From contig JAQWOM010000014.1 of the NCBI GenBank assembly GCA_029245865.1, positions 2,206-66,205 on the forward strand: a stretch of 64,000 nucleotides of DNA, in the 5' to 3' direction. Position numbers and translations under genes: made by a program. The notes below the pieces were generated by a model, which was not told where the DNA came from, did no database searches, and saw nothing but the letters and a program-made list of their open reading frames with translations. The first letter of the stretch is position 1. Every line of letters starts with the position of its first letter. The stretch is from Planctomycetota bacterium (lineage in GTDB: Bacteria > Planctomycetota > B15-G4). Positions 44,705 through 62,155 of this stretch are shown here, piece after piece.

Positions 44705-44725
44705 AAAAGAAGACAAAAGAGGGAT

Positions 44726-45120
<395 letters not shown>

Positions 45121-45920: not shown

Positions 45921-46847
45921 TTGCGTGAGCCACCCTTCCTGCAGTTGACACCACGCGCTGTGCTACGCCCCTGGGGCGGCAGCCGGGTGGCTCGGCGCTT
46001 TGGTTGGGATGCTGGCAGTGCGGTCGGCGAGTGGTGGCTCGCCAGCTGTTACCCCGGAATGGAAACGGCCCTGCACGAGACCGCGGGCAACCTTGCCACC
46101 TGGCTGGAGACAGAGGGCCGGGCCCTCAACTGTCCAGAAGCGATCGACTTCCCCATCCTGCTGAAGTTTCTAGATGCGGAAGAGACCCTCTCACTTCAAG
46201 TCCATCCGAACGATGACGTGGCCGCCCGGCACGGGCTGCCCGGGGGCAAGACAGAGGCATGGCACATTCTGGATGCCGATGCGAACGCTTGTGTCTACCT
46301 CGGCACGGCCCCGGGCACCACGTGTGCGGAGATCATGAGCCGCATCGAAGCGGGCGCCTCCAACGAAGACGTGCTCTCCATGATGAACCGACTTGCGGTT
46401 CGCGCCGGTGACACCTTGTTCGTAAAAGCCGGCACTCTGCATGCCATTGCCGGAGGCGTGTCTCTCTTCGAGGTTCAGCAGAACTCGGACGCCACCTACC
46501 GGATGCACGACTGGGGTCGAGGCCGCGCCTTGCACCTTGAGCAGGCCCGTGACGCCATGATCGATGGACCACCCAGCCAAATCATCCGTCCGGAAGTGGG
46601 TCAAGACTGGACGACCTTGGTGGATTGCTCAGCATTTCAGCTCTCTCGAGCGAAACCTAACGCACCCATCAAGATCGCGCCCACCGACGGATACGCCCTG
46701 CTCACCCTGCTCGCAGGAACTGGCGAACTTCAGGGTAAGCAGGGAACGCAAGCAACACTCTCAGCAGGTGACACGCTGCTCGTTCTTGACGAAGTCGAAC
46801 TCGCCGGGGCGGACCTTGACCTGCTGCTGGTTCAACCGGGTCTTTGA
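45921..46847 (+). CDS. manA: class I mannose-6-phosphate isomerase
   Basis: TTG start. 'FPILLKFLDAEETLSLQVHPND', 'GKTEAWHIL' and 'GTLHAI' are the type I PMI cupin/zinc motifs. Confidence 0.85.
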   Translation: MREPPFLQLTPRAVLRPWGGSRVARRFGWDAGSAVGEWWLASCYPGMETALHETAGNLATWLETEGRALNCPEAIDFPILLKFLDAEETLSLQVHPNDDVAARHGLPGGKTEAWHILDADANACVYLGTAPGTTCAEIMSRIEAGASNEDVLSMMNRLAVRAGDTLFVKAGTLHAIAGGVSLFEVQQNSDATYRMHDWGRGRALHLEQARDAMIDGPPSQIIRPEVGQDWTTLVDCSAFQLSRAKPNAPIKIAPTDGYALLTLLAGTGELQGKQGTQATLSAGDTLLVLDEVELAGADLDLLLVQPGL

Positions 46848-46883
46848 CCGCCCGTCACTCCTGCTGCAAGGCGCTGACCAAGA

Positions 46884-48158
46884 TCAGCTCTTCAGCAAGC
46901 GCTCATACTCTGCGGCAAGCTGCCGTGCGACAAGCCGCGCGTCATGCCGGGTTTCGGCGAGTTGCCGCCCGGCTGCACTCATCTGCTCACGACAGTTCGC
47001 GTCTAACAGGAGCGGTTTGAAGCCCTCCGAGAGAGCGACCCCATCCGAGGAGGCCAGGAGAATGCCGGCATCGCCGAGAACCTCCGAAACGGGAGCGCTC
47101 TCTGTTGCCAGCACCGGCAAGCCCGTAGCCAAGACCTCGGGCAGCACATAGGGAGAACTCTCTCCCCAGCTTGACTGCACCGCACCGGTCCACGCAAAGA
47201 CATCGGCCGCACGGTAGACGAGAGCACGATCTTCTTCTTCGAAGTTTGTCACCGTCAGCGCCCCCTGAATGCCAGCGCGCTGCGCGCTCCGCTTCAGGGC
47301 CTTTCGCATGGAGCGGGGACTTATAAGCACGAGGCGGACGCGTTGGCTGGAACATGCTGGATCCTTCGACAGGCGAGCCACCGCGCGCACCAGATCCTGC
47401 GCATCTTGGCGCCGGCGCGGATCCGCCACACCAAGAATCACAAACTCGTCGTCGGCGATCCCCAGGCGAGCACGAACTCCCCCATCTCCGCCGGAAGGTG
47501 TGAAGCGACCCACATCCACTCCCGTTGGAATCACCTTCACCTGAGCGGGCTTCGCGCCCTCACAGAGCAACTGCTGGCGACGAGATTCCGTCAGAGTGAT
47601 GTGAAGATCGGCCTCCTTCAACACAGCAGAACTCATGTCCCGCATGGTCTTGAATCGTTTGCTCGCAGAGGAGTGCCTCTCGCGCACTGTCGTGACAAGC
47701 TTGCAACCAGAAGCCCGCTTGGCTTGCAGCGCTTGCCAGGAGAAAGGGCGAAAGGTCTCGGATGTATGAACGATGTCAAACTCGCGAAGTTCGCTCAGCA
47801 GTCCCGTGTTAAGGGGCCCCCACCCGCATGCTGCCTGAAAGAAGAGGTTCACGTAGAAACCGATCTTCCCACTCGCCCGCGACATGGCATGGGCAAACGA
47901 ATCCGCGATGAGGTCTGCCTGGAATGGATGATCGAGGAGGTCGAAGTTCACCAGATCGACCCACTCGCGAAGATTGGCATCCATTGCCTTCTCGAACTGG
48001 GCAAAGGGCCTGCTGCGCAGCACAGCAACATGGGGACGTGCACAGCCCTCTGCCTCTCGAACCCATACGTCGGCGCTGCGCTCGAAAAGAGAGCCGCGCC
48101 GGCGATCAGATCGATCGACAACGAAAGAGATCGGAGAACTTGAACGTTTCATCTTCAT
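46884..48158 (-). CDS. GT4-family (GT-B) glycosyltransferase
   Basis: The C-terminal 'SSWGESSPYVLPEVLATGLPVLATESAPVSEVLGDAGILL' matches the E-x7-E region of retaining GT4 enzymes. Confidence 0.8.
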   Translation of the reverse strand: MKMKRSSSPISFVVDRSDRRRGSLFERSADVWVREAEGCARPHVAVLRSRPFAQFEKAMDANLREWVDLVNFDLLDHPFQADLIADSFAHAMSRASGKIGFYVNLFFQAACGWGPLNTGLLSELREFDIVHTSETFRPFSWQALQAKRASGCKLVTTVRERHSSASKRFKTMRDMSSAVLKEADLHITLTESRRQQLLCEGAKPAQVKVIPTGVDVGRFTPSGGDGGVRARLGIADDEFVILGVADPRRRQDAQDLVRAVARLSKDPACSSQRVRLVLISPRSMRKALKRSAQRAGIQGALTVTNFEEEDRALVYRAADVFAWTGAVQSSWGESSPYVLPEVLATGLPVLATESAPVSEVLGDAGILLASSDGVALSEGFKPLLLDANCREQMSAAGRQLAETRHDARLVARQLAAEYERLLKS

Positions 48159-48294
48159 GAATCTGATTCAGGTCATGCTTGACCGTTACGCCCTCTGAGA
48201 ACACTTGAAGGCCGGGTAGAAGCAGAGCTTCGTGAGACTCATCGACTGTCTGCACACCTCTCCTTTGCAAGAAATGGCGTGAAAGACCGGCACT

Positions 48295-49098
48295 TTGTGT
48301 CATGTCTGCCGAGGAGCGTGCCGATGCAAGGCATCCATGCCTTCGACAACTCAGATCCAACCCGCATCCGATCACCGCCTACCCACGGTGGTCCTTGGCG
48401 GTGTGCCCGTAGCCCGCCTCGGCCTCAGGCCCACCCTCGATGTCTTCATCGAGTGGCTTCAGGATGGCAGCGGCCCCCGCCGTGCAGCCACGGCAAACCT
48501 CTCCTGCCTTGAACTGGCCGGCCAGGACGACGAACTCCGTCGCTGCCTCTCAACAGCCGACATTGTCACAGCTGATGATGAACCCGTCGTCTGGCTGTCA
48601 AAACTTCGTGGCCAACCCATTGCCGAACGTGTTGCTGGCGCAGATTTTGTCTCACTGCTCGTGGGCGAGGCATCTCGCCTCGGGAAACGAATCTATTTCA
48701 TTGGCAGCAAGGAAAGCACAACTCTGGAGGCCATCAACGTTCTCCGCGAGCGCTACCCCAAGCTCATTGTGGTCGGCCATGCGTCCTCAACAGGAGACAT
48801 CCAGGAAGCTCGTGCTGGCCATGCCATGGCCGAGGCTGTCGCCAAGACGCAGGCAGACCTGGTCCTCGTGGACGTGAGTTGCCCTGAGCAAAACCTCTTC
48901 ATCGAACAGAACCTGCACACGCTGAACTGCCAACTCGCCATTGGCGTCAGTGAAGCCTTTCACTTCATCGCTGGTCACAACCCTTCCACACCTGCCTTCA
49001 TGCGACGCCTCTGGGACCGGTCTGTGCGTCACGGCATGTGCTTCATGCGGCTGCTCATCACCATCATTCTCAGCCGAAGTTTCAGCGCCTCATTCTGA
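48295..49098 (+). CDS. WecG/TagA/CpsF-family (GT26) glycosyltransferase
   Basis: 'TANLSCLELA', 'ADIVTADDEPVVW', 'RVAGADF', 'IYFIGSKE', 'LVLVDVSCPEQNLFI' and 'AIGVSEAFHFIAG' follow the GT26 family pattern. The start may instead be ATG 48337. Confidence 0.8.
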   Translation: MCHVCRGACRCKASMPSTTQIQPASDHRLPTVVLGGVPVARLGLRPTLDVFIEWLQDGSGPRRAATANLSCLELAGQDDELRRCLSTADIVTADDEPVVWLSKLRGQPIAERVAGADFVSLLVGEASRLGKRIYFIGSKESTTLEAINVLRERYPKLIVVGHASSTGDIQEARAGHAMAEAVAKTQADLVLVDVSCPEQNLFIEQNLHTLNCQLAIGVSEAFHFIAGHNPSTPAFMRRLWDRSVRHGMCFMRLLITIILSRSFSASF

Positions 49099-49142: not shown

Positions 49143-49760
49143 TCAGTAAGCCGTTTTCTGCTGATGCCCGAAGCAGTCTTCTCGACCATCGACTCGAACG
49201 CCTCGGCCGAAGAACAGCTCTCTCTTCGTGAGGTCGTCACCATAAACATGCAGTGAGATGGCACGCTCAGTGCCGACGTTCCGAACGCGATGCACCTCGC
49301 TGTCTGCGCCCAGATTGTCGCCAGTGAGACCGGCCGACAGGATCTCACGGCGCACTTCGTTGACGACGAAGGGAGAGCTGCCGTCATCTTCGGCGACCGC
49401 ATAATCTGTCACTTCGAGTCCACCTTCCAGGATTCCGAAGACACACCAGGTGTCATGATCGTGAATGGGCGTCACTGCCCCCGGCTCCCAGAGCAACACA
49501 ACGACCGTGAACCCGAGAGCTTCGTCGGAAACAACTTGATGACGACGGTAGCCGCCGGGCAAACGCTTCTCCGGATCCGACTCACGCCACATGGCGTCAA
49601 GGTCGCAACCCATGACCACGGCTTCTGAAATGGCGTGACGGCCCGCCACAATCAATTCGGAGAACTGCTTCGCCGAAGGGCAAGTTTCACGCAATGATTC
49701 GGCGACGGCCGTCGTCAGGCTGGGGCTTTGCTGTTCGGGCATAAGTGACCAGTCTAGCAT
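49143..49760 (-). CDS. cysteine dioxygenase type I-like cupin (thiol dioxygenase family)
   Basis: 'WEPGAVTPIHDHDTWCVFGILEGGLEVTDY' and '...VHRVRN...' fit the CDO_I cupin metal-binding pattern. Length is 205 aa. The gene lies 28 nt downstream of the radical SAM gene. Confidence 0.55.
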   Translation of the reverse strand: MLDWSLMPEQQSPSLTTAVAESLRETCPSAKQFSELIVAGRHAISEAVVMGCDLDAMWRESDPEKRLPGGYRRHQVVSDEALGFTVVVLLWEPGAVTPIHDHDTWCVFGILEGGLEVTDYAVAEDDGSSPFVVNEVRREILSAGLTGDNLGADSEVHRVRNVGTERAISLHVYGDDLTKRELFFGRGVRVDGREDCFGHQQKTAY

Positions 49761-49787: not shown

Positions 49788-51317
49788 CTAACTCCGCGCT
49801 CCGACATGTCTTCGCAGGAAATGAGACACATCAAGGCCTGCCACAACAAGCGCCTTGAGATGCTCGAAGCTGCGTACTTTCTTCAGAGACTTCCACGCAA
49901 AGCTCGGTCGCAGGTAGAACGCTTGCAGAAAGCGCTTCTGTGTATCGACCATCTGCTGGCTTGTGAAATGCGTGAAGCGCCAGGGTGGAACACGTGGGTA
50001 GTAGCCATACTGCGCCCAGTCAGGCCGGCCGCTCGGGAGCAAGTCCAGAAAGCCGCGCTCTTTGCACTCATTCCATAGCTCTGTACCTGGGTACGGACAG
50101 GCAATGGTGAATGTCAGGAAGTCTGGCTCGATTTCTTTCGCAAGCTGGCGAGTGAGTTGCACTTCCTCCGGGGTCTCGTCGACATGGCTACCGAGCATGA
50201 GATAGGCCGTGCGCAAGATCCCGGCACGCTTTGCTTCTTCAAAGACAGTCACCACGCGGCTTCGCGTCACGAGCTTTTGATTCAGTTCAAGAATCCGCTC
50301 AGATCCGCTCTCGACGCCAAAGTCGATCTTCTTGCAACCAGAGGCAGCCATCAGCTCGAAATGCTCACGCTGCAATCCATCGACACGTGCGTTGCAGCTC
50401 CAGGTGATCTCACGCCGAATGAGCTCTTCGGCCAACTCTTCTAAAAATCGAAGTGTTGGCGGAAAAATGTCGTCCTCAAAGTTGAGGTGATTGACACCAC
50501 GACCCACGAGCTCGTCGATCTCTTCCAGAACCCGTTCAACCGAACGTCGACGAATGCCGGGCCGTGCACGTTCTCCCCACACCAGATTGGTACTGCAGAA
50601 AACACAACGTGCGTAACAGCCACGAGAGAGGTGAACCTGCGCAGCGCGTATTCCTTTGCGCACAATTCCTGGGCTGGCCACGCCTTTGGAACCCGCCATG
50701 CGTTCGTAAGCACTCCAATCCAAGAGGCTTCGGTCGAGTGGTGCGAGGCTATCGAGATCTTCCAGCGGATCACGCCACCCGGTAAACCCTCCCTGGCGTA
50801 AATGCAGTCCGGAAATAGACGTCAGATCGGAACGCCCCCGAGCGGTCTCAAGCGCATCGCAGAGTTCAACGATCGAAACATCACCCTCGCCAATACAGAT
50901 GGCGTCAAGTTCAGGAATCTCATCCAACAGATCTTCGGGAAGCGCCGTCGCGTGCGGACCGCCAGCGATCGTGAAAACATCGGGCAACTGGGCGCGAACC
51001 TTCGACAACAACACGCCCGCCCCTGGGACGTGGGGCGTGACCACCGAGACTCCCACCACCGCGGGCTGTTGGCTTGCCAGCGCCTCGTGAAGTGAATCGA
51101 GCCCTCCGGATGCGACTTCGAGATCCAGCACCGAGGCGTGGTGCCCACATCGATTTAACTCACTCGCAAGCCCGATCAAGTTCGTGGGGTGCTGCAGATT
51201 CTGACGACTCATACGCCCCAAAATTGACGGCGGTCGAACGAGCAGGACATTCACGTCAGTTTGTTCCGGCAGCGGGCACGATGAACCTATCAATCGGGGA
51301 GAAAGCGCTGTCCCCAC
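49788..51317 (-). CDS. B12-binding-domain radical SAM enzyme
   Basis: The N-terminal Rossmann-like cobalamin-binding region is 'VLLVRPP...PTNLIGLASEL...VGVSVVTP'. It is followed by 'SRGCYARCVFCS' (CxxxCxxC). Length is 509 aa. Confidence 0.85.
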   Translation of the reverse strand: MGTALSPRLIGSSCPLPEQTDVNVLLVRPPSILGRMSRQNLQHPTNLIGLASELNRCGHHASVLDLEVASGGLDSLHEALASQQPAVVGVSVVTPHVPGAGVLLSKVRAQLPDVFTIAGGPHATALPEDLLDEIPELDAICIGEGDVSIVELCDALETARGRSDLTSISGLHLRQGGFTGWRDPLEDLDSLAPLDRSLLDWSAYERMAGSKGVASPGIVRKGIRAAQVHLSRGCYARCVFCSTNLVWGERARPGIRRRSVERVLEEIDELVGRGVNHLNFEDDIFPPTLRFLEELAEELIRREITWSCNARVDGLQREHFELMAASGCKKIDFGVESGSERILELNQKLVTRSRVVTVFEEAKRAGILRTAYLMLGSHVDETPEEVQLTRQLAKEIEPDFLTFTIACPYPGTELWNECKERGFLDLLPSGRPDWAQYGYYPRVPPWRFTHFTSQQMVDTQKRFLQAFYLRPSFAWKSLKKVRSFEHLKALVVAGLDVSHFLRRHVGARS

Positions 51318-51478: not shown

Positions 51479-53203
51479 ATGAGCCTTCCTCCGCCACGAC
51501 ACGACCGCCTGGTCTCTCACCTCCTCCGGGATCAGGCTGCTGAACGCCCGGACAAGGAAGCGCTGGCCTACCCGGCCTTCACGCAAAACGGAACGGCTGT
51601 TCGTCTCAACTTCTCCCAGCTAGACGCCGAGGTCGACCGTCTCGCACGCGGGCTCATTGCGCTCGGTATTCGGAAGGGCGAACACGTCGCTGTCTGGGCC
51701 GGCAATGTCTCAAGCTGGATCCCCCTGGAGTTTGCACTGGCCCGCGTCGGAGCCGTGCTGGTCACAGTGAACACCTCGCTGCAACCAGATGAAGTGGCTT
51801 ACATTTTAAGTCAGAGCCACGCTGTCGCTGTCATCCACACGACGTGCAATGGAAGCACGCAGGCCAGCGCCACACTGGACAACTTGTTGGCCGCGGAAAC
51901 CACAGGCCAACCTTCTTCAACTTCTGATCATCCGGTCTTGCCCGATCGCTTGCGCCTTCGCATCTGGCTGCCTTCACTTGCAGACGAAGCGCCCCCAAGC
52001 ATGCGAGCACCAAGAACGGGCGAGGCCGTCACGGTGCAACAGTTGTACGAACGTGGCAACAAGGTCTCTCTAGACGAGGTTCGCTTGCGCGAAAACTCGT
52101 TGGACTCTGGCGACGTCATCAACATTCAATACACCTCGGGGACAACGGGCTTTCCAAAGGGCGTCATGCTGAGTCACGTCAACATGATGACCAGTGCCTA
52201 CGCCCTCGGCGATGAGCTCGAACTGACTCCGGAAGACCGTGTCGTTCTCATGGTGCCGCTCTTCCATTGCTTCGGTTGCGTCGTGGCCGTCCTGGGCACC
52301 TTTACCTACGGCGCCAGCCTGCACGCCCTACCCGCATTTGAGCCCGGAGATGCCTTAAGGCTCATCCACGAAGAACGCTGTACGGTCATTCATGGCGTAC
52401 CCACCATGTACAGCGCGATGATCGCTCACGACGATCTCAAGAAATACGACACGAGCTCACTACGTACGGGCTTGGCAGCTGGAGCTCCCTGCCCTGTGCC
52501 GCTCATGGCAGCCATCCGAGACGAGCTGAAATGTGAGGGGATTCTCGTCGCATTCGGCCTCACCGAAGCCGCGCCTGGCGTTTCGGGGTGTCGACCTGGC
52601 GACACGTTCGAAGCGCGCAGTGAAACCATCGGTCGACCTATTTATGCCGTGGAAATGCGCATCGCAGATCCCGCCACGCTCGAACCGGTCCCGGATGGCA
52701 CCGAAGGAGAGATCCAGGTCCGCGGCCCGAACGTGATGGTGGGTTATCACAACGACCCACAAGCCACTGCCGCAAGCATGACTCCAGACGGCTGGTTGAA
52801 AACGGGTGATCTCGGAACCTGCGGGCCCGACGGACTTTTCCGAGTCGTTGGCCGCATCAAGAACATCATCATTCGCGGTGGCGAAAACATTGCCCCCGCC
52901 GAAATCGAGAATCTTCTCCGTGCACACCCAGACATCCTCGATGCAGCCGTTGTCGGCATCCGAGATGAAAAGTTTGGCGAAGAAGTGGCGGCTGCCTTGC
53001 GGCTCTCTCCAGGTAAATCCGTCGACATCGACAGCTACAAGGCGGCTCTCGAGGGTCGCATTGGAAGCTTCAAGCAGCCCAAAACTTTTCACGTCTTCGA
53101 GGCCTTCCCGTTAACAGGCTCCGGCAAAGTGAAGAAGTTCTTGCTCTCAAAGTGGATTGAAGGCGAACTCGGCATCCACTCAGAAGAACCCGCGCAGAGA
53201 TAA
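51479..53203 (+). CDS. acyl-CoA synthetase / fatty-acid--CoA ligase (ANL superfamily)
   Basis: AMP-binding motif 'IQYTSGTTGFPKGVMLSH', plus 'FGLTEA', 'GWLKTGDLG' and 'IIRGGENI', with a C-terminal 'GKVKK'. Confidence 0.9.
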   Translation: MSLPPPRHDRLVSHLLRDQAAERPDKEALAYPAFTQNGTAVRLNFSQLDAEVDRLARGLIALGIRKGEHVAVWAGNVSSWIPLEFALARVGAVLVTVNTSLQPDEVAYILSQSHAVAVIHTTCNGSTQASATLDNLLAAETTGQPSSTSDHPVLPDRLRLRIWLPSLADEAPPSMRAPRTGEAVTVQQLYERGNKVSLDEVRLRENSLDSGDVINIQYTSGTTGFPKGVMLSHVNMMTSAYALGDELELTPEDRVVLMVPLFHCFGCVVAVLGTFTYGASLHALPAFEPGDALRLIHEERCTVIHGVPTMYSAMIAHDDLKKYDTSSLRTGLAAGAPCPVPLMAAIRDELKCEGILVAFGLTEAAPGVSGCRPGDTFEARSETIGRPIYAVEMRIADPATLEPVPDGTEGEIQVRGPNVMVGYHNDPQATAASMTPDGWLKTGDLGTCGPDGLFRVVGRIKNIIIRGGENIAPAEIENLLRAHPDILDAAVVGIRDEKFGEEVAAALRLSPGKSVDIDSYKAALEGRIGSFKQPKTFHVFEAFPLTGSGKVKKFLLSKWIEGELGIHSEEPAQR

Positions 53204-53483: not shown

Positions 53484-54374
53484 ATGAGCCACCCCTTCAC
53501 GCCAGAGCCTGAGAACTCAAGACGCGACGAGACCGCGCCTTTCCAATCTGCTGCACTGGATGCGGAAGGTCTTGCGCCTGCGGCACACTCGTCACCGGGT
53601 CAACCACACCCGCTCCCTGGAGCTCCTACTCTCGTCATTCGCGAAGGCGCCTACCTGATTCGCTTCGCACAAAACGAGAAGGATCTTTCCGCGGCCTTGC
53701 GACTCCGTTACGAGGTCTTCAACCTCGAGCTAGGTGAAGGTCTCGAACAAAGCCACGCGAGTGGGCGCGATGAAGACACCTTCGACGCCGGTTGCCACCA
53801 TCTGATTGTCGAGCATGAACCGACGGGCCAGATCATTGGCACCTACCGCATGCAGACCCAAGAGATGGCCGAAGCAAACGGGGGCTTCTATTCAGATGGG
53901 GAGTTCGACCTCTCAGGGTTTCCTCACGCGGTACTGAAACAGTCAGTCGAGCTCGGCCGTGCCTGCGTCGCACAGGAACACCGTCGACAGCGAGTCTTGT
54001 TCGGGCTGTGGAAAGGCCTCGCGGCCTACGTCACGTTCATGAACAAGCGGTACCTCTTTGGCTGCTGCTCGCTGACCAGCCAGGACCCTCAGCAGGGGCG
54101 TATGGTGCTTGAGAAGCTCCGGCTCGACGGGCTCATTCACCCTGACTACATCGTGAAGCCACGCCCCGACATGCTGTGCGAAGACTCGAACTCGCCAATC
54201 GCTGACCCAAGCTCCGTCAAACTGCCAACTTTGTTCGGCACTTACCTGCGCTTCGGCGCCTTGGTCTGCAGCCCGCCTGCCATCGACCGAGAGTTCAAGA
54301 CCATCGACTATCTGGTTCTCATGGACTCGGCCACACTGCCCGCCCGAACTCGGGCGACTTTTTTCGGCGATTGA
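53484..54374 (+). CDS. OlsB/GlsB-like N-acyltransferase (GNAT Acetyltransf_5; lyso-aminolipid synthase)
   Basis: The core 'YLIRFAQNEKDLSAALRLRYEVFNLELGEGL...DEDTFDAGCHHLIVEH..TGQIIGTYRM' and '...ELGRACVAQEHR' resemble the N-acyl amino acid synthase/OlsB family. A PlsC-family acyltransferase follows immediately, as in olsBA and glsBA pairs. Confidence 0.65.
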   Translation: MSHPFTPEPENSRRDETAPFQSAALDAEGLAPAAHSSPGQPHPLPGAPTLVIREGAYLIRFAQNEKDLSAALRLRYEVFNLELGEGLEQSHASGRDEDTFDAGCHHLIVEHEPTGQIIGTYRMQTQEMAEANGGFYSDGEFDLSGFPHAVLKQSVELGRACVAQEHRRQRVLFGLWKGLAAYVTFMNKRYLFGCCSLTSQDPQQGRMVLEKLRLDGLIHPDYIVKPRPDMLCEDSNSPIADPSSVKLPTLFGTYLRFGALVCSPPAIDREFKTIDYLVLMDSATLPARTRATFFGD

Positions 54375-54399: not shown

Positions 54400-55203
54400 G
54401 TGAATCAGTTGCGAGCCACTCTGCGCCTCGGCGCCTTCTTTATCTGGTGCGGCGGTGCATTCGCCGCCTCATTGCTCGCTCAGTTGATGATCGTGCTCAT
54501 GCCTTCCGTCGGCGTGTCGGCGAAACGCATCACAGCAAAGGTCTGGGCACGTGGAGTTTGCCTGATCATTGGCTTGCAAGTCGACGTGCAGGGCTCGCCA
54601 CCAGAACCTCCGTTCATCCTGGTTTCAAATCACCTGAGCTACATCGACATCGTCACGCTCATGTCCGTGATCCCTGGTGTGTTCGTCGCCAAGTCCGAAG
54701 TGGCCAATTGGCCTCTTCTTGGTCCGCTGTCCCGCGTGGCCAGCACCATTTTTGTCGACAGACAGAGCAAAAAAGACGTGGTTCGAGTCAATGCCGAGAT
54801 TGATCGCATCCTGGCACGCGGTGAAGGCTTGATCATGTTCCCTGAAGGAACGTCCTCGCAGGGAAGGAGCGTGTTGCCCTTCCGTTCATCGCTCTTGCAG
54901 CCAGCATGTAGCGCCGGGCATCCCGTGAACTACGCAAGTCTCAGCTATCACACCCCCTCCGGAGCCCCCCCTGCAGAGATGTCGGTGTGCTGGTGGGGAG
55001 ACATGACATTCGGAGATCACTTCTGGGGGCTCCTCCAACTTCCGAGCATCGAGGGCTCGATCTCTTTCGGCGATCAATCTGTCGCCGCAGGCTCGCGCCA
55101 TGAACTCGCACATGCGTTGCAAATCGCTGTCATCGAGAATTTCAGGCCGGTTTCTGACACCCCGGAGGGCGAACCAGAAACCAAGTGCATGGATCTCAAC
55201 TAA
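54400..55203 (+). CDS. PlsC-family lysolipid O-acyltransferase (OlsA/GlsA-like)
   Basis: The acyltransferase motifs 'VSNHLSYIDI' (HX4D), 'VFVAKSE', 'MFPEGTSS' and 'P...' are present, with an N-terminal TM helix. Confidence 0.8.
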   Translation: MNQLRATLRLGAFFIWCGGAFAASLLAQLMIVLMPSVGVSAKRITAKVWARGVCLIIGLQVDVQGSPPEPPFILVSNHLSYIDIVTLMSVIPGVFVAKSEVANWPLLGPLSRVASTIFVDRQSKKDVVRVNAEIDRILARGEGLIMFPEGTSSQGRSVLPFRSSLLQPACSAGHPVNYASLSYHTPSGAPPAEMSVCWWGDMTFGDHFWGLLQLPSIEGSISFGDQSVAAGSRHELAHALQIAVIENFRPVSDTPEGEPETKCMDLN

Positions 55204-57917
55204 ACGTGTGGCGCCGAGTCGGGTGGATTCTTCTCACGCTGTATCTTGCCGCTCTGACTGCGTCGAGCCTGGCATGGGCTCTCCGCACGACCGAGAAGCC
55301 TCAAGCACGAGAAGGTGTTTTATCTGTCACGCTGCCGGCGGCAGACAATGCCCTGCCGGTGCGCATCGCCTACCAACTCTTTGAACCGGCAGGCACCGAG
55401 AATCGCGCCGATCTGCCTGTCGTCGTGCTCATCCACGGCAGCCCCGGGCGCGGAGAGAACTTCACGTCTGCCAGCCGCGACCCTGGCATGGCACGTGCCC
55501 TGGCCCAACGCCACCTGGTGATTGTCCCGGACCTCCCAGGCTTCGGCGACTCGACGATCGACGCCCCCGAACTCTCCATCGCAGCACATGCCACCCACTT
55601 GCGCGGATTGCTCGATGCACTGGATATCCAGCGGGCACATCTCGTTGGCTACAGCATGGGTGGAGGTCCAGGCCTGCTTCTCTGGGATCAAGATCCTGGT
55701 CGCGTCGCCTCCCTCACCCTTCTTTCTTCGATCGGCGTCCAGGAGATGGAACTTCTGGGCGACTACACGCTCAATCACGCCATCCATGGTCTTCAGCTGA
55801 GTGCTTTTCAATCCGCTCGCATGCTCGTGCCCCACTTTGGAAACACCGAGTTCTTCGATTCGGCCATTGCCTATGCGCGAAACTTCTACGAGACAGACCA
55901 GCGCCCTTTGCGCGAGATTCTCCAGCGATTCGAACCTCCGTTACTGATTCTTCACGGCGAGCGCGACTTCCTCGTGCCCGTGCAGGCCGCCTACGAACAC
56001 CATCGCATTGCTCCTCACAGTGAATTGTGGGTGAACAATCAGAGCCATTTCATGGTGTTCGAGGATCGACCGGCACTTCTTGACCCTCTGATGAACTTCA
56101 TCGATCGAGTTGAATCCGGAAAAGCGAAGCACCTCGGTGAAGCGACCCCCGAACGCATCGCGCAAGCTGCTGAGAGCTTTGACCCTTCAACCATCCCACC
56201 TGCCACAGGCGTGTTCCTTGCGGTGCTCATGGCACTGCTCGCGCTTTCGACTTTGGTCAGTGAAGATCTCACGTGCATCGGAGCTGGCCTCATGGTGGCC
56301 AGCGGCCGGCTGAGTTTCCTCTCTGCTTCCGCCGCTTGCTTGGCGGGCATCTTCGTAGGCGACATCATGTTGTTTCTTGCGGGACGCATTCTGGGTCGAC
56401 CCGCCGTGCAACGCGCACCGCTCAAGTGGTTCGTGTCCTCTGCAGCTCTTGAACGCAGCCGTCGGTGGTTTGACGCACGTGGCCCCGTGGTCATCCTCAT
56501 GAGCCGCTTCATGCCCGGCATGCGTCTCCCGACCTACGTCGCTGCCGGCGTGTTGGGAACGAGCTTGCTGAAGTTCTGCCTTTGGTTTCTGCTGGCCGGA
56601 GTGCTCTGGACGCCTGCACTGGTAGGCCTCTCGATGGTGGCCGGTGAAGAGATCATGAACAGCTTTGGATGGCTTCAGGAGCATCCCATGCTGGGCATTG
56701 GCCTGGTGTTCGCCAGCTTGCTCGCTCTCCTGAAAATCTGCATCCCGATGTTCAGCCACCGCGGCCGTCGATTGCTGTATGGCCGCTGGCTACGGCTGAC
56801 ACGCTGGGAGTACTGGCCCACGTGGCTTCTGTATCCGCCCATCGTGCTCTACATCTTGTGGCTGGGCCTGAAGCACAGAAGCCTGACGGTGGTCACTGCG
56901 GTGAACCCGTGTATGCCAGCCGGTGGAATCATTGGTGAGTCGAAAACGGAAATCCTCGAACATATTCGTGCGTGCCTCGAAGAGCGCTCAGGAGAAGGGG
57001 CGGCACATCGTGTGTTACCTGCCAGCTGCTCAATCCCTGGCGACCTTTCGAGCGCCGCGCGTCTTGAGCGCGTGCACTCTTTCATGAAGGAGCATGCACT
57101 CGAATACCCCCTCGTACTCAAACCTGACGCAGGACAGCGCGGTTCAGGCGTTGAGATCGTGCGCGTGGCAGGCGAAGTGCCCGAGGCCCTGAACCGGCTC
57201 CCTGTCGATGTCACCGCACAGGAGTTCGTGGACGGACTCGAGTTCGGCATCTTCTACGCGCGAGATCCCGATGACATGGCGAGCGGGGATGTTTTCTCCA
57301 TCACCGCAAAGAAATTCCCCACGGTCACCGGCGATGGCTCGCGAACTCTCGAAGAACTGCTTCTCGACGACACGCGTGCCCCGGCCATGGTCCAGGCTTA
57401 CACGGCCAATCTCGGCGAACGCATCAACGATGTCCCGAAGGTCGGAGAAACCGTCAAGCTCACCGAGGTAGGCGCGCACGCTCGCGGAGCTATTTTTCTC
57501 GATGCCCGCGATCTACTCACCCCTCAACTCCAGGAGGCCGTGGACTCCATCAGTCGCCGCATTTCTGGTTTCTACTTCGGCCGATACGACATCATCGTGC
57601 CTACGGTTGAAGACTTGCAACTCGGCAAGAACTTGCGCGTCATCGAATTGAACGGCCTCACTTCCGAAGCCACCCACATTTACGATGCTCGCACACCACT
57701 TTTCAGAGCGCTGGGCACTCTGGCCAGCCAGTGGAGACGCGCATTTCGCATTGGCGTGGCCAATCGGGCACGCGGTGTCAAAACCACATCGGCCTGGGCA
57801 TTGGTGCGTCTCTCGATTGGCTTTTTGAAAACAGCAGCCAAACGCACGCGGTCTCGAAGTCAGCCTTGCTCGGCACCAGGCTCGAAGAAATCGACAAGTC
57901 CAGACTCCACATCGTAG
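55185..57917 (+). CDS. tri-domain fusion: alpha/beta-hydrolase + DedA/VTT membrane domain + ATP-grasp ligase
   Basis: Hydrolase module: 'VVLIHGSPG', 'GYSMGGG', 'GERDFLVP', 'QSHFM'. DedA module: 'SEDLTCIGAGLMVASG', 'SRFMPGMRLPTYVAAG'. ATP-grasp module: 'LVLKPDAGQRGSGVEIV', 'VIELNGLTSE'. It is one open frame of 910 codons. GTG 55185 overlaps the previous gene by 19 nt, and an alternative GTG lies at 55206. Confidence 0.75.
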   Translation: MHGSQLNVWRRVGWILLTLYLAALTASSLAWALRTTEKPQAREGVLSVTLPAADNALPVRIAYQLFEPAGTENRADLPVVVLIHGSPGRGENFTSASRDPGMARALAQRHLVIVPDLPGFGDSTIDAPELSIAAHATHLRGLLDALDIQRAHLVGYSMGGGPGLLLWDQDPGRVASLTLLSSIGVQEMELLGDYTLNHAIHGLQLSAFQSARMLVPHFGNTEFFDSAIAYARNFYETDQRPLREILQRFEPPLLILHGERDFLVPVQAAYEHHRIAPHSELWVNNQSHFMVFEDRPALLDPLMNFIDRVESGKAKHLGEATPERIAQAAESFDPSTIPPATGVFLAVLMALLALSTLVSEDLTCIGAGLMVASGRLSFLSASAACLAGIFVGDIMLFLAGRILGRPAVQRAPLKWFVSSAALERSRRWFDARGPVVILMSRFMPGMRLPTYVAAGVLGTSLLKFCLWFLLAGVLWTPALVGLSMVAGEEIMNSFGWLQEHPMLGIGLVFASLLALLKICIPMFSHRGRRLLYGRWLRLTRWEYWPTWLLYPPIVLYILWLGLKHRSLTVVTAVNPCMPAGGIIGESKTEILEHIRACLEERSGEGAAHRVLPASCSIPGDLSSAARLERVHSFMKEHALEYPLVLKPDAGQRGSGVEIVRVAGEVPEALNRLPVDVTAQEFVDGLEFGIFYARDPDDMASGDVFSITAKKFPTVTGDGSRTLEELLLDDTRAPAMVQAYTANLGERINDVPKVGETVKLTEVGAHARGAIFLDARDLLTPQLQEAVDSISRRISGFYFGRYDIIVPTVEDLQLGKNLRVIELNGLTSEATHIYDARTPLFRALGTLASQWRRAFRIGVANRARGVKTTSAWALVRLSIGFLKTAAKRTRSRSQPCSAPGSKKSTSPDSTS

Positions 57918-58507
57918 GTCGCACCCACGATCCGCAGGCCCGAACCTCGCGCGCATTCGGACAGGACGCTCGAGTCATTTCGAAGACTTGTCACCGAATT
58001 GATCACGTTCGAGCGCACGGCCGCATCCATCCAGAGGTCAGTTGCCATGGGCTCACTTGCATCGGCAGCCAACTGCACCGAGGGTGCAATGTGATCCAGG
58101 ATCGATTGCAGTTCTGGCGACGGCCTTCCGCTTGGCTTCCTGAGCTCTTCATAACTTGCCCAGACTGCAGCACACATCGAATGACCCAATACGACAACGA
58201 GTTGCGTGCCAAAAGCTTCCGCGGCCAATTCAACGCTGCCCACGACGTGCTGAGACGCGATGTTTCCGGCCACACGCAACACCAGAAGATCGCCCAATCC
58301 CTGTCCAAAAATGATCTCGGGCGGCACGCGTGAATCGAGACATCCCAACACAATGGCGAAAGGCTTCTGTACGGCCGCCACTTCACGTCGCCTCTCCGTA
58401 CCGCAATCCTGCGCGGCAAGGCCTTCGCCGGCCGCAAAGCGCCGGTTGCCCTCGCGCAAGCGATCGAGAGCCTCCTCTGCTGTGACCTCGGACTTGTTCT
58501 CTTTCAT
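57860..58507 (-). CDS. beta-class carbonic anhydrase
   Basis: 'LGCLDSRVPPE', 'GDLLVLRVAGN' and 'VVVLGHSMCAAV' are the Cys/Asp-Arg/His-x-x-Cys zinc-site motifs. Confidence 0.9.
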   Translation of the reverse strand: MKENKSEVTAEEALDRLREGNRRFAAGEGLAAQDCGTERRREVAAVQKPFAIVLGCLDSRVPPEIIFGQGLGDLLVLRVAGNIASQHVVGSVELAAEAFGTQLVVVLGHSMCAAVWASYEELRKPSGRPSPELQSILDHIAPSVQLAADASEPMATDLWMDAAVRSNVINSVTSLRNDSSVLSECARGSGLRIVGATYDVESGLVDFFEPGAEQG

Positions 58508-61120: not shown

Positions 61121-61945
61121 TCAGGAACCCGCCGCCTCTGCCGTGCGCGCCTCGGCAATCTCCCTCGCGACCTGATCCCAGAGAAGCGCGCGGGCTCGCA
61201 GCGCTTTTTCTGCGGTCTCCTTGGCTTCAGACCAAAGCTTTTCGTCATTGCCGCAAAGCCTCTTGACCAGCAACTCGGCTTGGGGGCCATGTTCTTCGGA
61301 ATCCTTCTGGATGTGTCGGTCCAGGTAGTGCCGCAAGAGACTCCATGAGTCCGGAGAAGTCGCGGAGAGCTGTTCAACAAAACGGCGGAACATGGCGGGA
61401 ATGACATTTTCGCGGCCATAAGTGAAAGCTGCGGCAACACGATGCGCTTGGCCTGACAGCGCGATCTTCATGGTTTCCCTCACGAAAGGGCGGGCACCAG
61501 CAGGAAGCGCCGGCACGTCCATCGCTTCTTCGACCGAAAAGCCCCGTCGCAAACCTTCGACAAATGCTTCGATCGGCTGCGTGTTCGCACCGCACTGCTT
61601 CATGGCAGAGAAATACATCTCGAAGTGTGAAAGGTGCCCTCCTCCTGGAACTTCATCGCTCTCTTCGTCGAGAACGATTTCGTTAATCAAGCGCCGCGCC
61701 TCAGGATCCGCAGTCGGGATCCACGGCACCTCGACACAGGTCACCAACCGCTGCAAAGCAGTTAAGAGTGATTGGAAATCCCAGACCGCAAAGACATGCG
61801 TCTCCATGAAGATCCGAACGCTCCGGTCATCATGAAGGCAGCCGTAAAGTGGATGCCTCATCAAACCTTCACGCAACGGGCTCAAAACGACCTCAAGAAC
61901 TGTCTGAGGGGAAGTGCCCAGCGGGTGATTTGTCTTCGCGTTCAT
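61121..61945 (-). CDS. DUF3050-family (heme-oxygenase-like fold) protein
   Basis: 'HPLYGCL...IFMETHVFAVWDFQSLLTALQRLVTCVEVPWIPTADPEARRLINEIVLDEESDE...SHFEMYFSAMKQCGA' matches my memory of the DUF3050 conserved core. The start is ATG 61945. Confidence 0.65.
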   Translation of the reverse strand: MNAKTNHPLGTSPQTVLEVVLSPLREGLMRHPLYGCLHDDRSVRIFMETHVFAVWDFQSLLTALQRLVTCVEVPWIPTADPEARRLINEIVLDEESDEVPGGGHLSHFEMYFSAMKQCGANTQPIEAFVEGLRRGFSVEEAMDVPALPAGARPFVRETMKIALSGQAHRVAAAFTYGRENVIPAMFRRFVEQLSATSPDSWSLLRHYLDRHIQKDSEEHGPQAELLVKRLCGNDEKLWSEAKETAEKALRARALLWDQVAREIAEARTAEAAGS

Positions 61946-62155
61946 GGAGAGCCTTGCGCTGGAGAGGCAGGCAGGATCATACGGCCCAACGAGTCGCATA
62001 GTCACAAGATCCCCACTCCAGGGGCTCTTGAGCAAGAACGAACTGAGCGCAAATGCTACGCATGCGGGGGCATCACTGATGGACAGATCAACATGTCACG
62101 CCACAGTTGGAGCGGCCTGGATAGCCTGAATAGCACCGGGAATCGAGGCGCAGCC

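Follow-up and report, generated by a model that had tools for sequence, protein, structure and literature searches.

A hydrolase, DedA and ATP-grasp fusion encoded behind OlsB/OlsA-like genes in a Planctomycetota bacterium: a candidate aminolipid head-group ligase

Amino-acid lipids substitute for phospholipids in many bacteria and influence tolerance of stress, susceptibility to polymyxin and recognition by the host. Known modifications of the ornithine-lipid head group include those made by the OlsC/D/E hydroxylases and the OlsG methylase, and no aminolipid-modifying enzyme is known to be an ATP-grasp enzyme, a DedA protein or a PlaF-like hydrolase. A ligase activity forming taurine-ornithine lipid was reportedly described biochemically in the 1970s, and Ser-Gly and Orn-Ser-Gly lipids imply a similar activity. 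The MprF protein is an aminoacyl-phosphatidylglycerol synthase fused to a flippase; it uses aminoacyl-tRNA and phosphatidylglycerol and has periplasmic hydrolase partners. Here we describe a 64,000-nucleotide (nt) stretch of DNA from a Planctomycetota bacterium (contig JAQWOM010000014.1; hereafter the window), in which one gene directly behind an OlsB-like and an OlsA-like acyltransferase gene encodes an alpha/beta-hydrolase, a DedA domain and an ATP-grasp module in a single protein of 910 amino acids (aa). The analysis was computational, and all coordinates are positions in the window. We propose, with a probability of about 0.5, that this fusion is a three-module inner-membrane enzyme, encoded by the last gene of the operon, which acts on the lipid made by the OlsB-like and OlsA-like proteins and uses its ATP-grasp module to amidate the carboxylate of that lipid.

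Two aminolipid pathways come closest to the proposed reaction. According to a 2026 review, the transfer of taurine to the carboxyl group of ornithine lipid is ATP-dependent and its gene is still unidentified; the reaction proposed here would match this transfer. The same review describes Ser-Gly and Orn-Ser-Gly head groups and treats glycine lipid as an intermediate towards the Ser-Gly lipid, naming no enzyme for that step. With regard to domain architecture, rhodanese, PAP2 and pyridine-nucleotide-disulfide oxidoreductase are the only fusion partners of DedA recorded in a published survey. The literature searched gave neither a description of the tri-domain protein family or its architecture nor a characterised example, in agreement with an earlier note on this DNA, made from its letters alone, that had not recognised the architecture as a characterised enzyme.

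The fusion gene and its three modules

The gene and its parts are the following.

55185..57917, plus strand: fusion open reading frame (ORF), 910 aa, GTG start, no internal stop (ORF listing and translation)
55227..55283, plus strand: N-terminal transmembrane (TM) anchor, aa 15-33, probably with its N-terminus inside (hydropathy 1.84; N-tails of homologues rich in Lys and Arg)
55407..56114, plus strand: PlaF-like alpha/beta-hydrolase, aa 75-310, probably periplasmic (Pfam, invariant triad)
56202..56750, plus strand: DedA/VTT domain, aa 340-522 (Pfam VTT_dom, AlphaFold2 (AF2) secondary structure, hydropathy and charge, YqjA topology paper)
56805..56873, plus strand: Trp/Tyr/Pro-rich membrane anchor 'F', aa 541-563, RWEYWPTWLLYPPIVLYILWLGL, probably non-spanning
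56874..57857, plus strand: ATP-grasp carboxylate-amine ligase module, aa 564-891, probably cytoplasmic (profile against PDB sequences, AF2, Foldseek)

A second in-frame GTG at 55206 gives a 903-aa product, and an identical (100%) protein is encoded on two other contigs in public assemblies. The DNA at the junction of the OlsA-like gene and the fusion reads ...ccaaGTGcATGgatctcaacTAAacGTGtgg...; the OlsA-like stop codon occupies 55201-55203, and the fusion therefore either overlaps that gene by 19 nt (GTG 55185) or begins 2 nt past its stop (GTG 55206). The earlier note had claimed a single uninterrupted 910-codon frame whose start overlaps or abuts the OlsA-like stop, with 25 nt between the OlsB-like and OlsA-like genes. 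The DNA itself confirms the junction and the gap, and the frame is upheld by the ORF call, the translation, the independent assemblies and the full-length homologues. The chance of a 910-codon open frame arising at random is negligible, and G+C content is flat (~59%) across the region.

Altogether more than 2000 homologues were found, one of them at 86% identity, and the best 120 listed are nearly all full length (825-929 aa) with an identical set of Pfam domains. In an alignment of 32 sequences of the fusion family (47-86% identity), residue conservation continues through the linkers of the fusion. A scan of one genome per species found a relative in at least 588 species genomes, distributed over Acidobacteriota, Planctomycetota, Gemmatimonadota, Calditrichota, Rhodothermia/Balneolaceae, Desulfobacterales, Verrucomicrobiota, KSB1, Latescibacterota and Proteobacteria. 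One carrier, Saltatorellus ferox Poly30 (L043, NZ_CP036434, ~3.39-3.42 Mb), is a cultured bacterium. Several antisense ORFs of 111-190 aa lie opposite the fusion gene, on the minus strand of 55320-57956. They were rejected as genes and interpreted as shadow ORFs that accompany a conserved GC-rich gene; their equivalents cluster in 64-74 related loci.

The hydrolase module matches Abhydrolase_1 at aa 78-182 (1.7e-25, 90.6 bits) and Abhydrolase_6 at aa 80-297 (59.7 bits), above the Pfam gathering cutoffs of 25.8 and 26.3 bits, respectively. Its catalytic triad S157/D261/H288 and the HG oxyanion residues H84/G85 are invariant in the 32 sequences. The best PDB matches by sequence include PlaF of P. 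aeruginosa (6i8w, 1.1e-10 over aa 77-309) and Lip1 of A. baumannii (4opm), which are also the top two fold matches in Foldseek, with 6i8w at rank 2 (1e-11, 25% identity). Like PlaF (PA2949) and Lip1, the fusion begins with a single N-terminal TM helix followed by a Ser-Asp-His alpha/beta-hydrolase, and the domain is probably periplasmic as well. PlaF, however, is a stand-alone membrane-anchored phospholipase A1 that acts on glycerophospholipids, whereas the fusion hydrolase continues into the DedA and ATP-grasp modules.

The second module matches VTT_dom (PF09335) at aa 367-482 (4e-13, 50.3 bits against a cutoff of 33.9). It shares with DedA proteins of the COG0586 type (YqjA/YghB, UptA) two re-entrant hairpins, three spanning helices and a cytoplasmic amphipathic helix, and the DedA residues E360/D361, R441, G445 and R447 are invariant in the alignment. 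Hairpin 2 carries the R441-x5-R447 pair with the spacing of R130/R136 in YqjA. In hairpin 1, on the other hand, the acidic residues E360/D361 are adjacent and do not form the spaced E...D pair of YqjA (E39/D51). The best DedA match among NCBIfam models is the UptA equivalog (5.5e-15), at 55.9 bits under a cutoff of 250. The fusion thus differs from UptA in score and from YqjA in the spacing of its hairpin-1 acidic residues.

To identify the third module, a family profile and a structure model were required. No Pfam ATP-grasp family matches the fusion even at E 0.1, nor did one match the C-terminal 345 aa when these were scanned directly; some homologues pass the RimK cutoff of 21 bits (21.8-25.7 bits). 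NCBIfam matches are weak, namely archaeal Ddl (2.4e-4) and cyanophycin synthetase (3.7e-5), the latter at 21.9 bits against an equivalog cutoff of 850; of the three cyanophycin synthetase domains (N, G and M), the fusion has only a G-like module. A C-terminal family profile built from 20 sequences (alignment A2) retrieved CphA2 (7ta5, 2e-7), CphA1, GshAB and Ddl among PDB sequences (2e-7 to 8e-5). The AF2 model built on the same alignment (predicted local distance difference test 89.6, predicted template modelling score 0.86) was most similar in Foldseek to GshF (3ln6, 7e-10), the CphA1 G domain (~2e-9) and CphA2, followed by many Ddl/VanA structures; GshF, CphA and Ddl ranged from 7e-10 to 1e-7, all at probability 1.00. 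Residue K646, the Gly-rich loop residues G650/R652/G653 and the metal-site residues E821 and N823 are invariant across the 32 sequences.

The module therefore resembles the G domain of CphA1/CphA2, GshF and Ddl in its ATP-grasp fold, ATP-binding Lys, Gly-rich loop and E-x-N metal site, and the 'GDG..T...LI.D' insertion of CphA2 also aligns with it. In contrast, it is only 12-18% identical to CphA, GshF and Ddl, lacks the N and M domains of CphA, and is combined with DedA and lipase-like domains in an aminolipid operon. It also has a membrane anchor where these enzymes have a Rossmann-like N-domain. The AF2 model shows mostly helices and one short strand between the anchor and the K646 strand, and the canonical N-domain therefore appears to be absent. 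An anchor in its place fits a lipid substrate.

The identities that the earlier note had assigned to the three modules all held: the hydrolase with its named motifs, by Pfam scores and invariant columns; the DedA domain, by VTT_dom and its signature residues; and the ATP-grasp ligase with its Gly-rich loop and E-x-N site, by the A2 profile, AF2, Foldseek and invariant columns. Of the Pfam matches it had expected, Abhydrolase_1/6 and VTT_dom were found and an ATP-grasp family was not. The structural comparison it had suggested led to GshF/CphA/Ddl for the ATP-grasp module and to PlaF/Lip1 for the hydrolase. One detail needs correction, namely the 'two extra TM helices' said to follow the DedA domain. 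The first (aa 501-522) is the third spanning helix of the DedA family itself, and the second (aa 544-563) more probably anchors the protein without crossing the membrane.

The membrane layout was drawn from hydropathy and charge combined with AF2 secondary structure.

aa 15-33: TM helix
aa 342-358 and 360-372: helix-break-helix hairpin
aa 378-408: helix
aa 409-440: loop with 8 Lys/Arg
aa 441-460: hairpin bearing R441/R447
aa 461-482 and 501-522: two helices, the connecting loop without Lys/Arg
aa 523-543: linker with 6 Lys/Arg
aa 544-563: weakly hydrophobic Trp/Tyr/Pro-rich segment

The experimentally probed plan of YqjA consists of a periplasmic-side hairpin, a spanning helix, a cytoplasmic helix, a cytoplasmic-side hairpin and two spanning helices, and aa 340-522 of the fusion follow the same plan. 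On this basis the DedA domain would lie in the YqjA orientation, with the N-tail, the Lys/Arg-rich linker and the ATP-grasp module in the cytoplasm, the hydrolase in the periplasm and anchor 'F' monotopic. The hydrolase is placed in the periplasm because the YqjA residue just ahead of the first hairpin is periplasmic. The first TM helix should run from inside to outside, since a 1121-aa relative (P0267) has a signal-less TANGO2 domain (~250 aa) before it; the Lys/Arg-rich N-tails of homologues agree with an N-terminus inside. Anchor 'F', in which W541, E542, W544, Y550 and P552 are invariant, presumably cannot span the membrane, because stand-alone proteins consist of a Lys/Arg-rich tail, the anchor and the ATP-grasp module, and the latter needs ATP. 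Two other layouts were rejected: an inverted DedA topology would place 14 Lys/Arg in the periplasm, and a cytoplasmic hydrolase would require a 13-residue 'hairpin' plus export of the Lys/Arg-rich N-tail.

Linkage to aminolipid genes and dispersed forms

Two genes precede the fusion in the conserved module.

53484..54374, plus strand: OlsB-like N-acyltransferase, 296 aa, first gene of the module (Acetyltransf_5, PF13444, 2.8e-31)
54400..55203, plus strand: OlsA-like lyso-aminolipid O-acyltransferase, 267 aa, 25 nt after the OlsB-like gene (Acyltransferase, PF01553, 1.6e-23)

Both belong to the Pfam families of the ornithine-lipid synthesis enzymes (OlsB/OlsA/OlsF) and score best against OlsB and OlsA models. 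Their scores lie below the NCBIfam equivalog cutoffs, at 151 and 142 bits against 350 and 320 for OlsB and at 148 and 129 bits against 300 for OlsA.

Gene neighbourhoods were compared by tblastn and ORF clustering in 80 related loci from many phyla plus the window, and neighbours were counted in the 58 loci whose upstream flank measured 3 kb or more. Of these, 49 (84%) carry an OlsB/OlsA-like (or OlsF-like) gene on the strand of the fusion and no further than 5 kb from it. OlsB-like genes, orthologues located upstream of the fusion with 46-59% identity, occur in 48 loci and OlsA-like genes in 42, followed by DinB (39) and TANGO2 (23). The recurrent same-strand order is OlsB-like, OlsA-like, DinB_2 (~180 aa), NRDE/TANGO2 (~265 aa) and the fusion, with an M48/SprT-like gene as an optional last member; small TM proteins and ferric-reductase-TM/Rieske proteins may precede the OlsB-like gene. 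At some loci an OlsF-like ORF of ~620 aa replaces the OlsB/OlsA pair. The window represents the minimal form, OlsB-OlsA-fusion, and no DinB or TANGO2 homologue was found anywhere in its 64 kb. The partnership with DinB and NRDE/TANGO2, like the membrane side of the domains, goes beyond what the earlier note had suggested; the linkage to OlsB/OlsA-like genes that it had asked for in relatives is present, and split versions share it.

Examples of the DinB_2 and NRDE/TANGO2 partners are found in loci L004 (8707-9953) and L090 (7108-8423), and the NRDE/TANGO2 protein begins with Met-Cys, like N-terminal-nucleophile hydrolases. Thiol chemistry or ammonia supply are only guesses for the role of DinB and TANGO2. 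A Rieske block was observed ahead of the OlsB-like gene in 13 of the 58 loci (upstream in L017, L037, L059, L063, L065 and L080; also L081, 5670-8349) and is not present in the window. It comprises two small proteins without a Pfam match and one or two ferric-reductase-type TM/Rieske [2Fe-2S] proteins, and may represent a lipid hydroxylase or desaturase. L081, the closest genomic relative of the window (67% identity), has the order Rieske-OlsB-OlsA-fusion and, as in the window, an M28 peptidase gene downstream. This peptidase is common to the window and L081 only and is not conserved in the other loci.

An exhaustive search with the ATP-grasp profile gave 1634 clusters (50% identity) at E<=1e-30. 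Among the top 150 of the 1634 representatives, the following architectures were distinguished by length.

~830-900 aa: tri-domain
~520-620 aa: DedA and ATP-grasp
~350-390 aa: anchor and ATP-grasp
1121 aa: TANGO2, hydrolase, DedA and ATP-grasp in one protein (P0267)

Shorter forms were also found beside aminolipid genes. For example, Blastocatellia have the order OlsB-OlsA-[DedA and ATP-grasp], a gammaproteobacterial contig has DinB-ATP-grasp-OlsF, Candidatus Endobugula (gammaproteobacteria) has DinB-ATP-grasp-OlsB-OlsA, and in Variovorax the ATP-grasp gene is followed directly by an OlsB-like gene.

On plasmids and chromids of cultured bacteria, tblastn identified 29 records at 33-37% identity. 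In plasmid 1 of Paracoccus denitrificans PD1222 (L088, NC_008688 426820-429511), a model organism amenable to genetics, the three modules are separate adjacent genes for the ATP-grasp (PDEN_RS24485), alpha/beta-hydrolase (PDEN_RS25810) and VTT (PDEN_RS24475) proteins, all with hypothetical or generic annotations; the hydrolase is 32% identical to that of the fusion (E 2e-11). The Azospirillum copies are DedA and ATP-grasp didomains. Komagataeibacter (Acetobacteraceae) encodes a stand-alone ATP-grasp protein on large plasmids, namely pGX5 of K. xylinus E25 (L087) and five others, and the E25 gene, mis-annotated as a D-alanine--D-alanine ligase, adjoins genes for a Haem_oxygenas_2 iron enzyme and a methyltransferase. 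This genus shares its family with the cerilipin producer Gluconobacter cerinus. Salinivibrio, Vibrio sp. THAF191d and Photobacterium have the order DedA/ATP-grasp/DinB/NRDE, with an additional OlsB/OlsF-like ORF ~1 kb further downstream in Photobacterium.

The one component common to all these forms is the ATP-grasp module; DedA, hydrolase, DinB and NRDE/TANGO2 recur as its partners, fused or adjacent, and aminolipid synthase genes are the dominant, not universal, neighbours. In V. cholerae, the salt-regulated ornithine-lipid synthase OlsF (VCA0646, 581 aa) is the last product of a four-gene operon, VCA0649-VCA0646, whose other members are uncharacterised (PMC12186959). This operon may be the same gene set, because related Vibrionaceae have DedA/ATP-grasp/DinB/NRDE genes, followed in Photobacterium by an OlsF-like gene.

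Proposed reaction and its alternatives

From the modules and their neighbours we infer the substrate, the amine, the direction of transport and the hydrolase reaction as follows. The OlsB-like and OlsA-like enzymes would make an N-(3-acyloxyacyl) amino acid lipid whose alpha-carboxylate stays free. At the cytoplasmic leaflet, the membrane-tethered ATP-grasp module would phosphorylate this carboxylate and couple it to an amine, which could be a second amino acid, a taurine-like amine or ammonia, with a change in the charge and size of the head group. The DedA domain, with E360/D361 in hairpin 1 and the paired arginines in hairpin 2, would then shift the lipid between leaflets, and in the outer leaflet the periplasmic hydrolase might strip the ester-linked acyl chain or otherwise turn the lipid over. 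Extension at the carboxylate fits the closest ATP-grasp relatives, because these phosphorylate the alpha-carboxylate of an N-substituted amino acid before adding an amine, and an acyloxyacyl aminolipid would present such a carboxylate at the membrane surface. The earlier note had suggested an extension of this kind, and its interpretation is supported in part.

By analogy, the fusion would resemble MprF in joining a cytoplasmic head-group modifier to a lipid translocator, with a periplasmic hydrolase to undo or adjust the modification. The two have no sequence or fold relation, however, and the fusion would use ATP through an acyl-phosphate and act on a probably phosphorus-free aminolipid. A wider view, which we regard as possible and put forward tentatively, is that the family is the long-missing ATP-dependent aminolipid head-group ligase and that its tri-domain form works as a 'cap, flip and trim' machine, complete in itself, by which the charge of phosphorus-free lipids in the outer leaflet is set. 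The finding points to one concrete and widespread gene family whose chemistry fits, which is tethered to the membrane and which is very strongly linked to aminolipid synthases. If the proposal is true, the fusion would be a non-homologous counterpart of MprF and its periplasmic hydrolase in hundreds of species from more than 10 phyla, the first DedA protein with a defined non-phosphate lipid partner and the first ATP-grasp enzyme acting on a membrane lipid. Cultured carriers exist in Saltatorellus ferox, Paracoccus denitrificans and strains of Vibrio, Salinivibrio and Photobacterium.

Several points weigh against this proposal. No experiment on any family member was found in the literature. 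The head-group amino acid of the OlsB-like enzyme is not fixed, because its scores lie below the equivalog cutoffs. Nine of the 58 fusion loci have no OlsB/OlsA-like gene nearby, and in Paracoccus, Azospirillum, Komagataeibacter and Salinivibrio, whose homologues are 33-37% identical, none was found within 6 kb. The model does not account for the frequent partners DinB and NRDE/TANGO2. The arginine pair of hairpin 2 is a feature linked to undecaprenyl-phosphate flippases. Finally, 'hydrolase' may be the wrong activity for the alpha/beta domain, because OlsI, an alpha/beta-hydrolase, acts as an O-acyltransferase in ornithine-lipid synthesis; the domain of the fusion may likewise be an acyltransferase.

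Among the alternatives, the one that survives best reverses the polarity of the ligase. Here the ATP-grasp module would activate a soluble acid, such as an amino acid or dicarboxylate, and join it to the amine or hydroxyl of the aminolipid, for example to the delta-amino group of an ornithine or lysine lipid, with DedA and hydrolase acting as proposed above. The evidence from linkage and domains is identical for both polarities. Ddl, VanA and the L-amino-acid ligases, which are ATP-grasp enzymes, activate small soluble acids, and the OlsB-like protein scores best with the OlsB models for ornithine lipids, which have a free amine. We nevertheless consider this polarity unlikely: the N-domain for a soluble substrate is replaced by a membrane anchor, suggesting that the activated carboxylate comes from the membrane, and both known biochemical precedents extend the carboxylate of the lipid.

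A second alternative is that the substrate is a different lipid of the envelope, for example a glycerophospholipid or an intermediate linked to polyprenyl phosphate, and that the fusion is merely co-regulated with the aminolipid genes, for instance in an envelope stress response. The R-x5-R motif of hairpin 2 and the UptA match resemble undecaprenyl-phosphate flippases, the closest hydrolase structure, PlaF, is a phospholipase A, and the loci of Paracoccus, Azospirillum, Komagataeibacter and Salinivibrio have no OlsB/OlsA-like genes nearby. However, the UptA score is far under its cutoff, the same-strand adjacency of 84% extends over more than 10 phyla with start and stop codons that overlap or abut, and stand-alone ATP-grasp genes without DedA still adjoin OlsF or OlsB/OlsA-like genes. 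This reading appears quite unlikely to us.

The order of the steps could also be different, with the ATP-grasp module producing a soluble dipeptide or amide for subsequent N-acylation by the OlsB-like enzyme, and the tether merely co-localising the two steps. L-amino-acid ligases and Ddl-type enzymes do produce free dipeptides, and the OlsB-like proteins encoded in these clusters, which score under the OlsB cutoffs and form a divergent subgroup, could take an unusual head group. Such an order is very unlikely, given that glycine lipid reportedly precedes the Ser-Gly lipid and taurine goes onto preformed ornithine lipid, that a lipid substrate is suggested by the fusion to a lipid transporter, and that the loss of the N-domain together with an interfacial anchor kept even in stand-alone forms is hard to square with a soluble reaction. 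The last alternative, an assembly or frameshift artefact joining separate genes, is refuted for practical purposes by the identical 903-aa product on two other contigs, the 86% homologue, the nearly uniform full length of the best 120 listed relatives, the at least 588 species genomes that encode a relative, the conserved linkers and the flat G+C content.

Other features of the window

The remaining features lie upstream and downstream of the OlsB-OlsA-fusion module.

44724-45120, minus strand: RNase P RNA, bacterial class A, full length (Rfam 275.6 bits; sole Rfam match in the window)
49143-49760, minus strand: cysteine dioxygenase type I homologue (CDO_I, 4.8e-11)
49788-51317, minus strand: B12-binding radical-SAM enzyme
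51479..53203, plus strand: FadD-like fatty-acyl-CoA ligase, 280 nt upstream of the OlsB-like gene (AMP-binding, 8e-94)
57860-58507, minus strand: beta-class carbonic anhydrase, convergent with the fusion gene (Pro_CA, 6e-35)
61121-62035, minus strand: DUF3050 protein, downstream (Pfam 1.2e-89)

A homologue of the FadD-like gene occurs near the fusion in only 1 of the 80 loci, and this gene is possibly a window-specific operon member outside the conserved module. The CDO_I and radical-SAM genes are divergent from the strand of the FadD/OlsB/OlsA/fusion genes, and such a pair next to the fusion was not found in any related locus. A sulfinate- or taurine-type amine donor derived from this pair would fit an amide-capped aminolipid. 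The carbonic anhydrase gene overlaps the last 58 nt of the fusion, corresponding to aa 892-910, an unconserved C-terminal tail of low confidence in the model. Further upstream, an envelope-polysaccharide group (45921-49098) encodes a type I phosphomannose isomerase-like protein, a GT4 glycosyltransferase and a glycosyltransferase of the WecG/TagA family.

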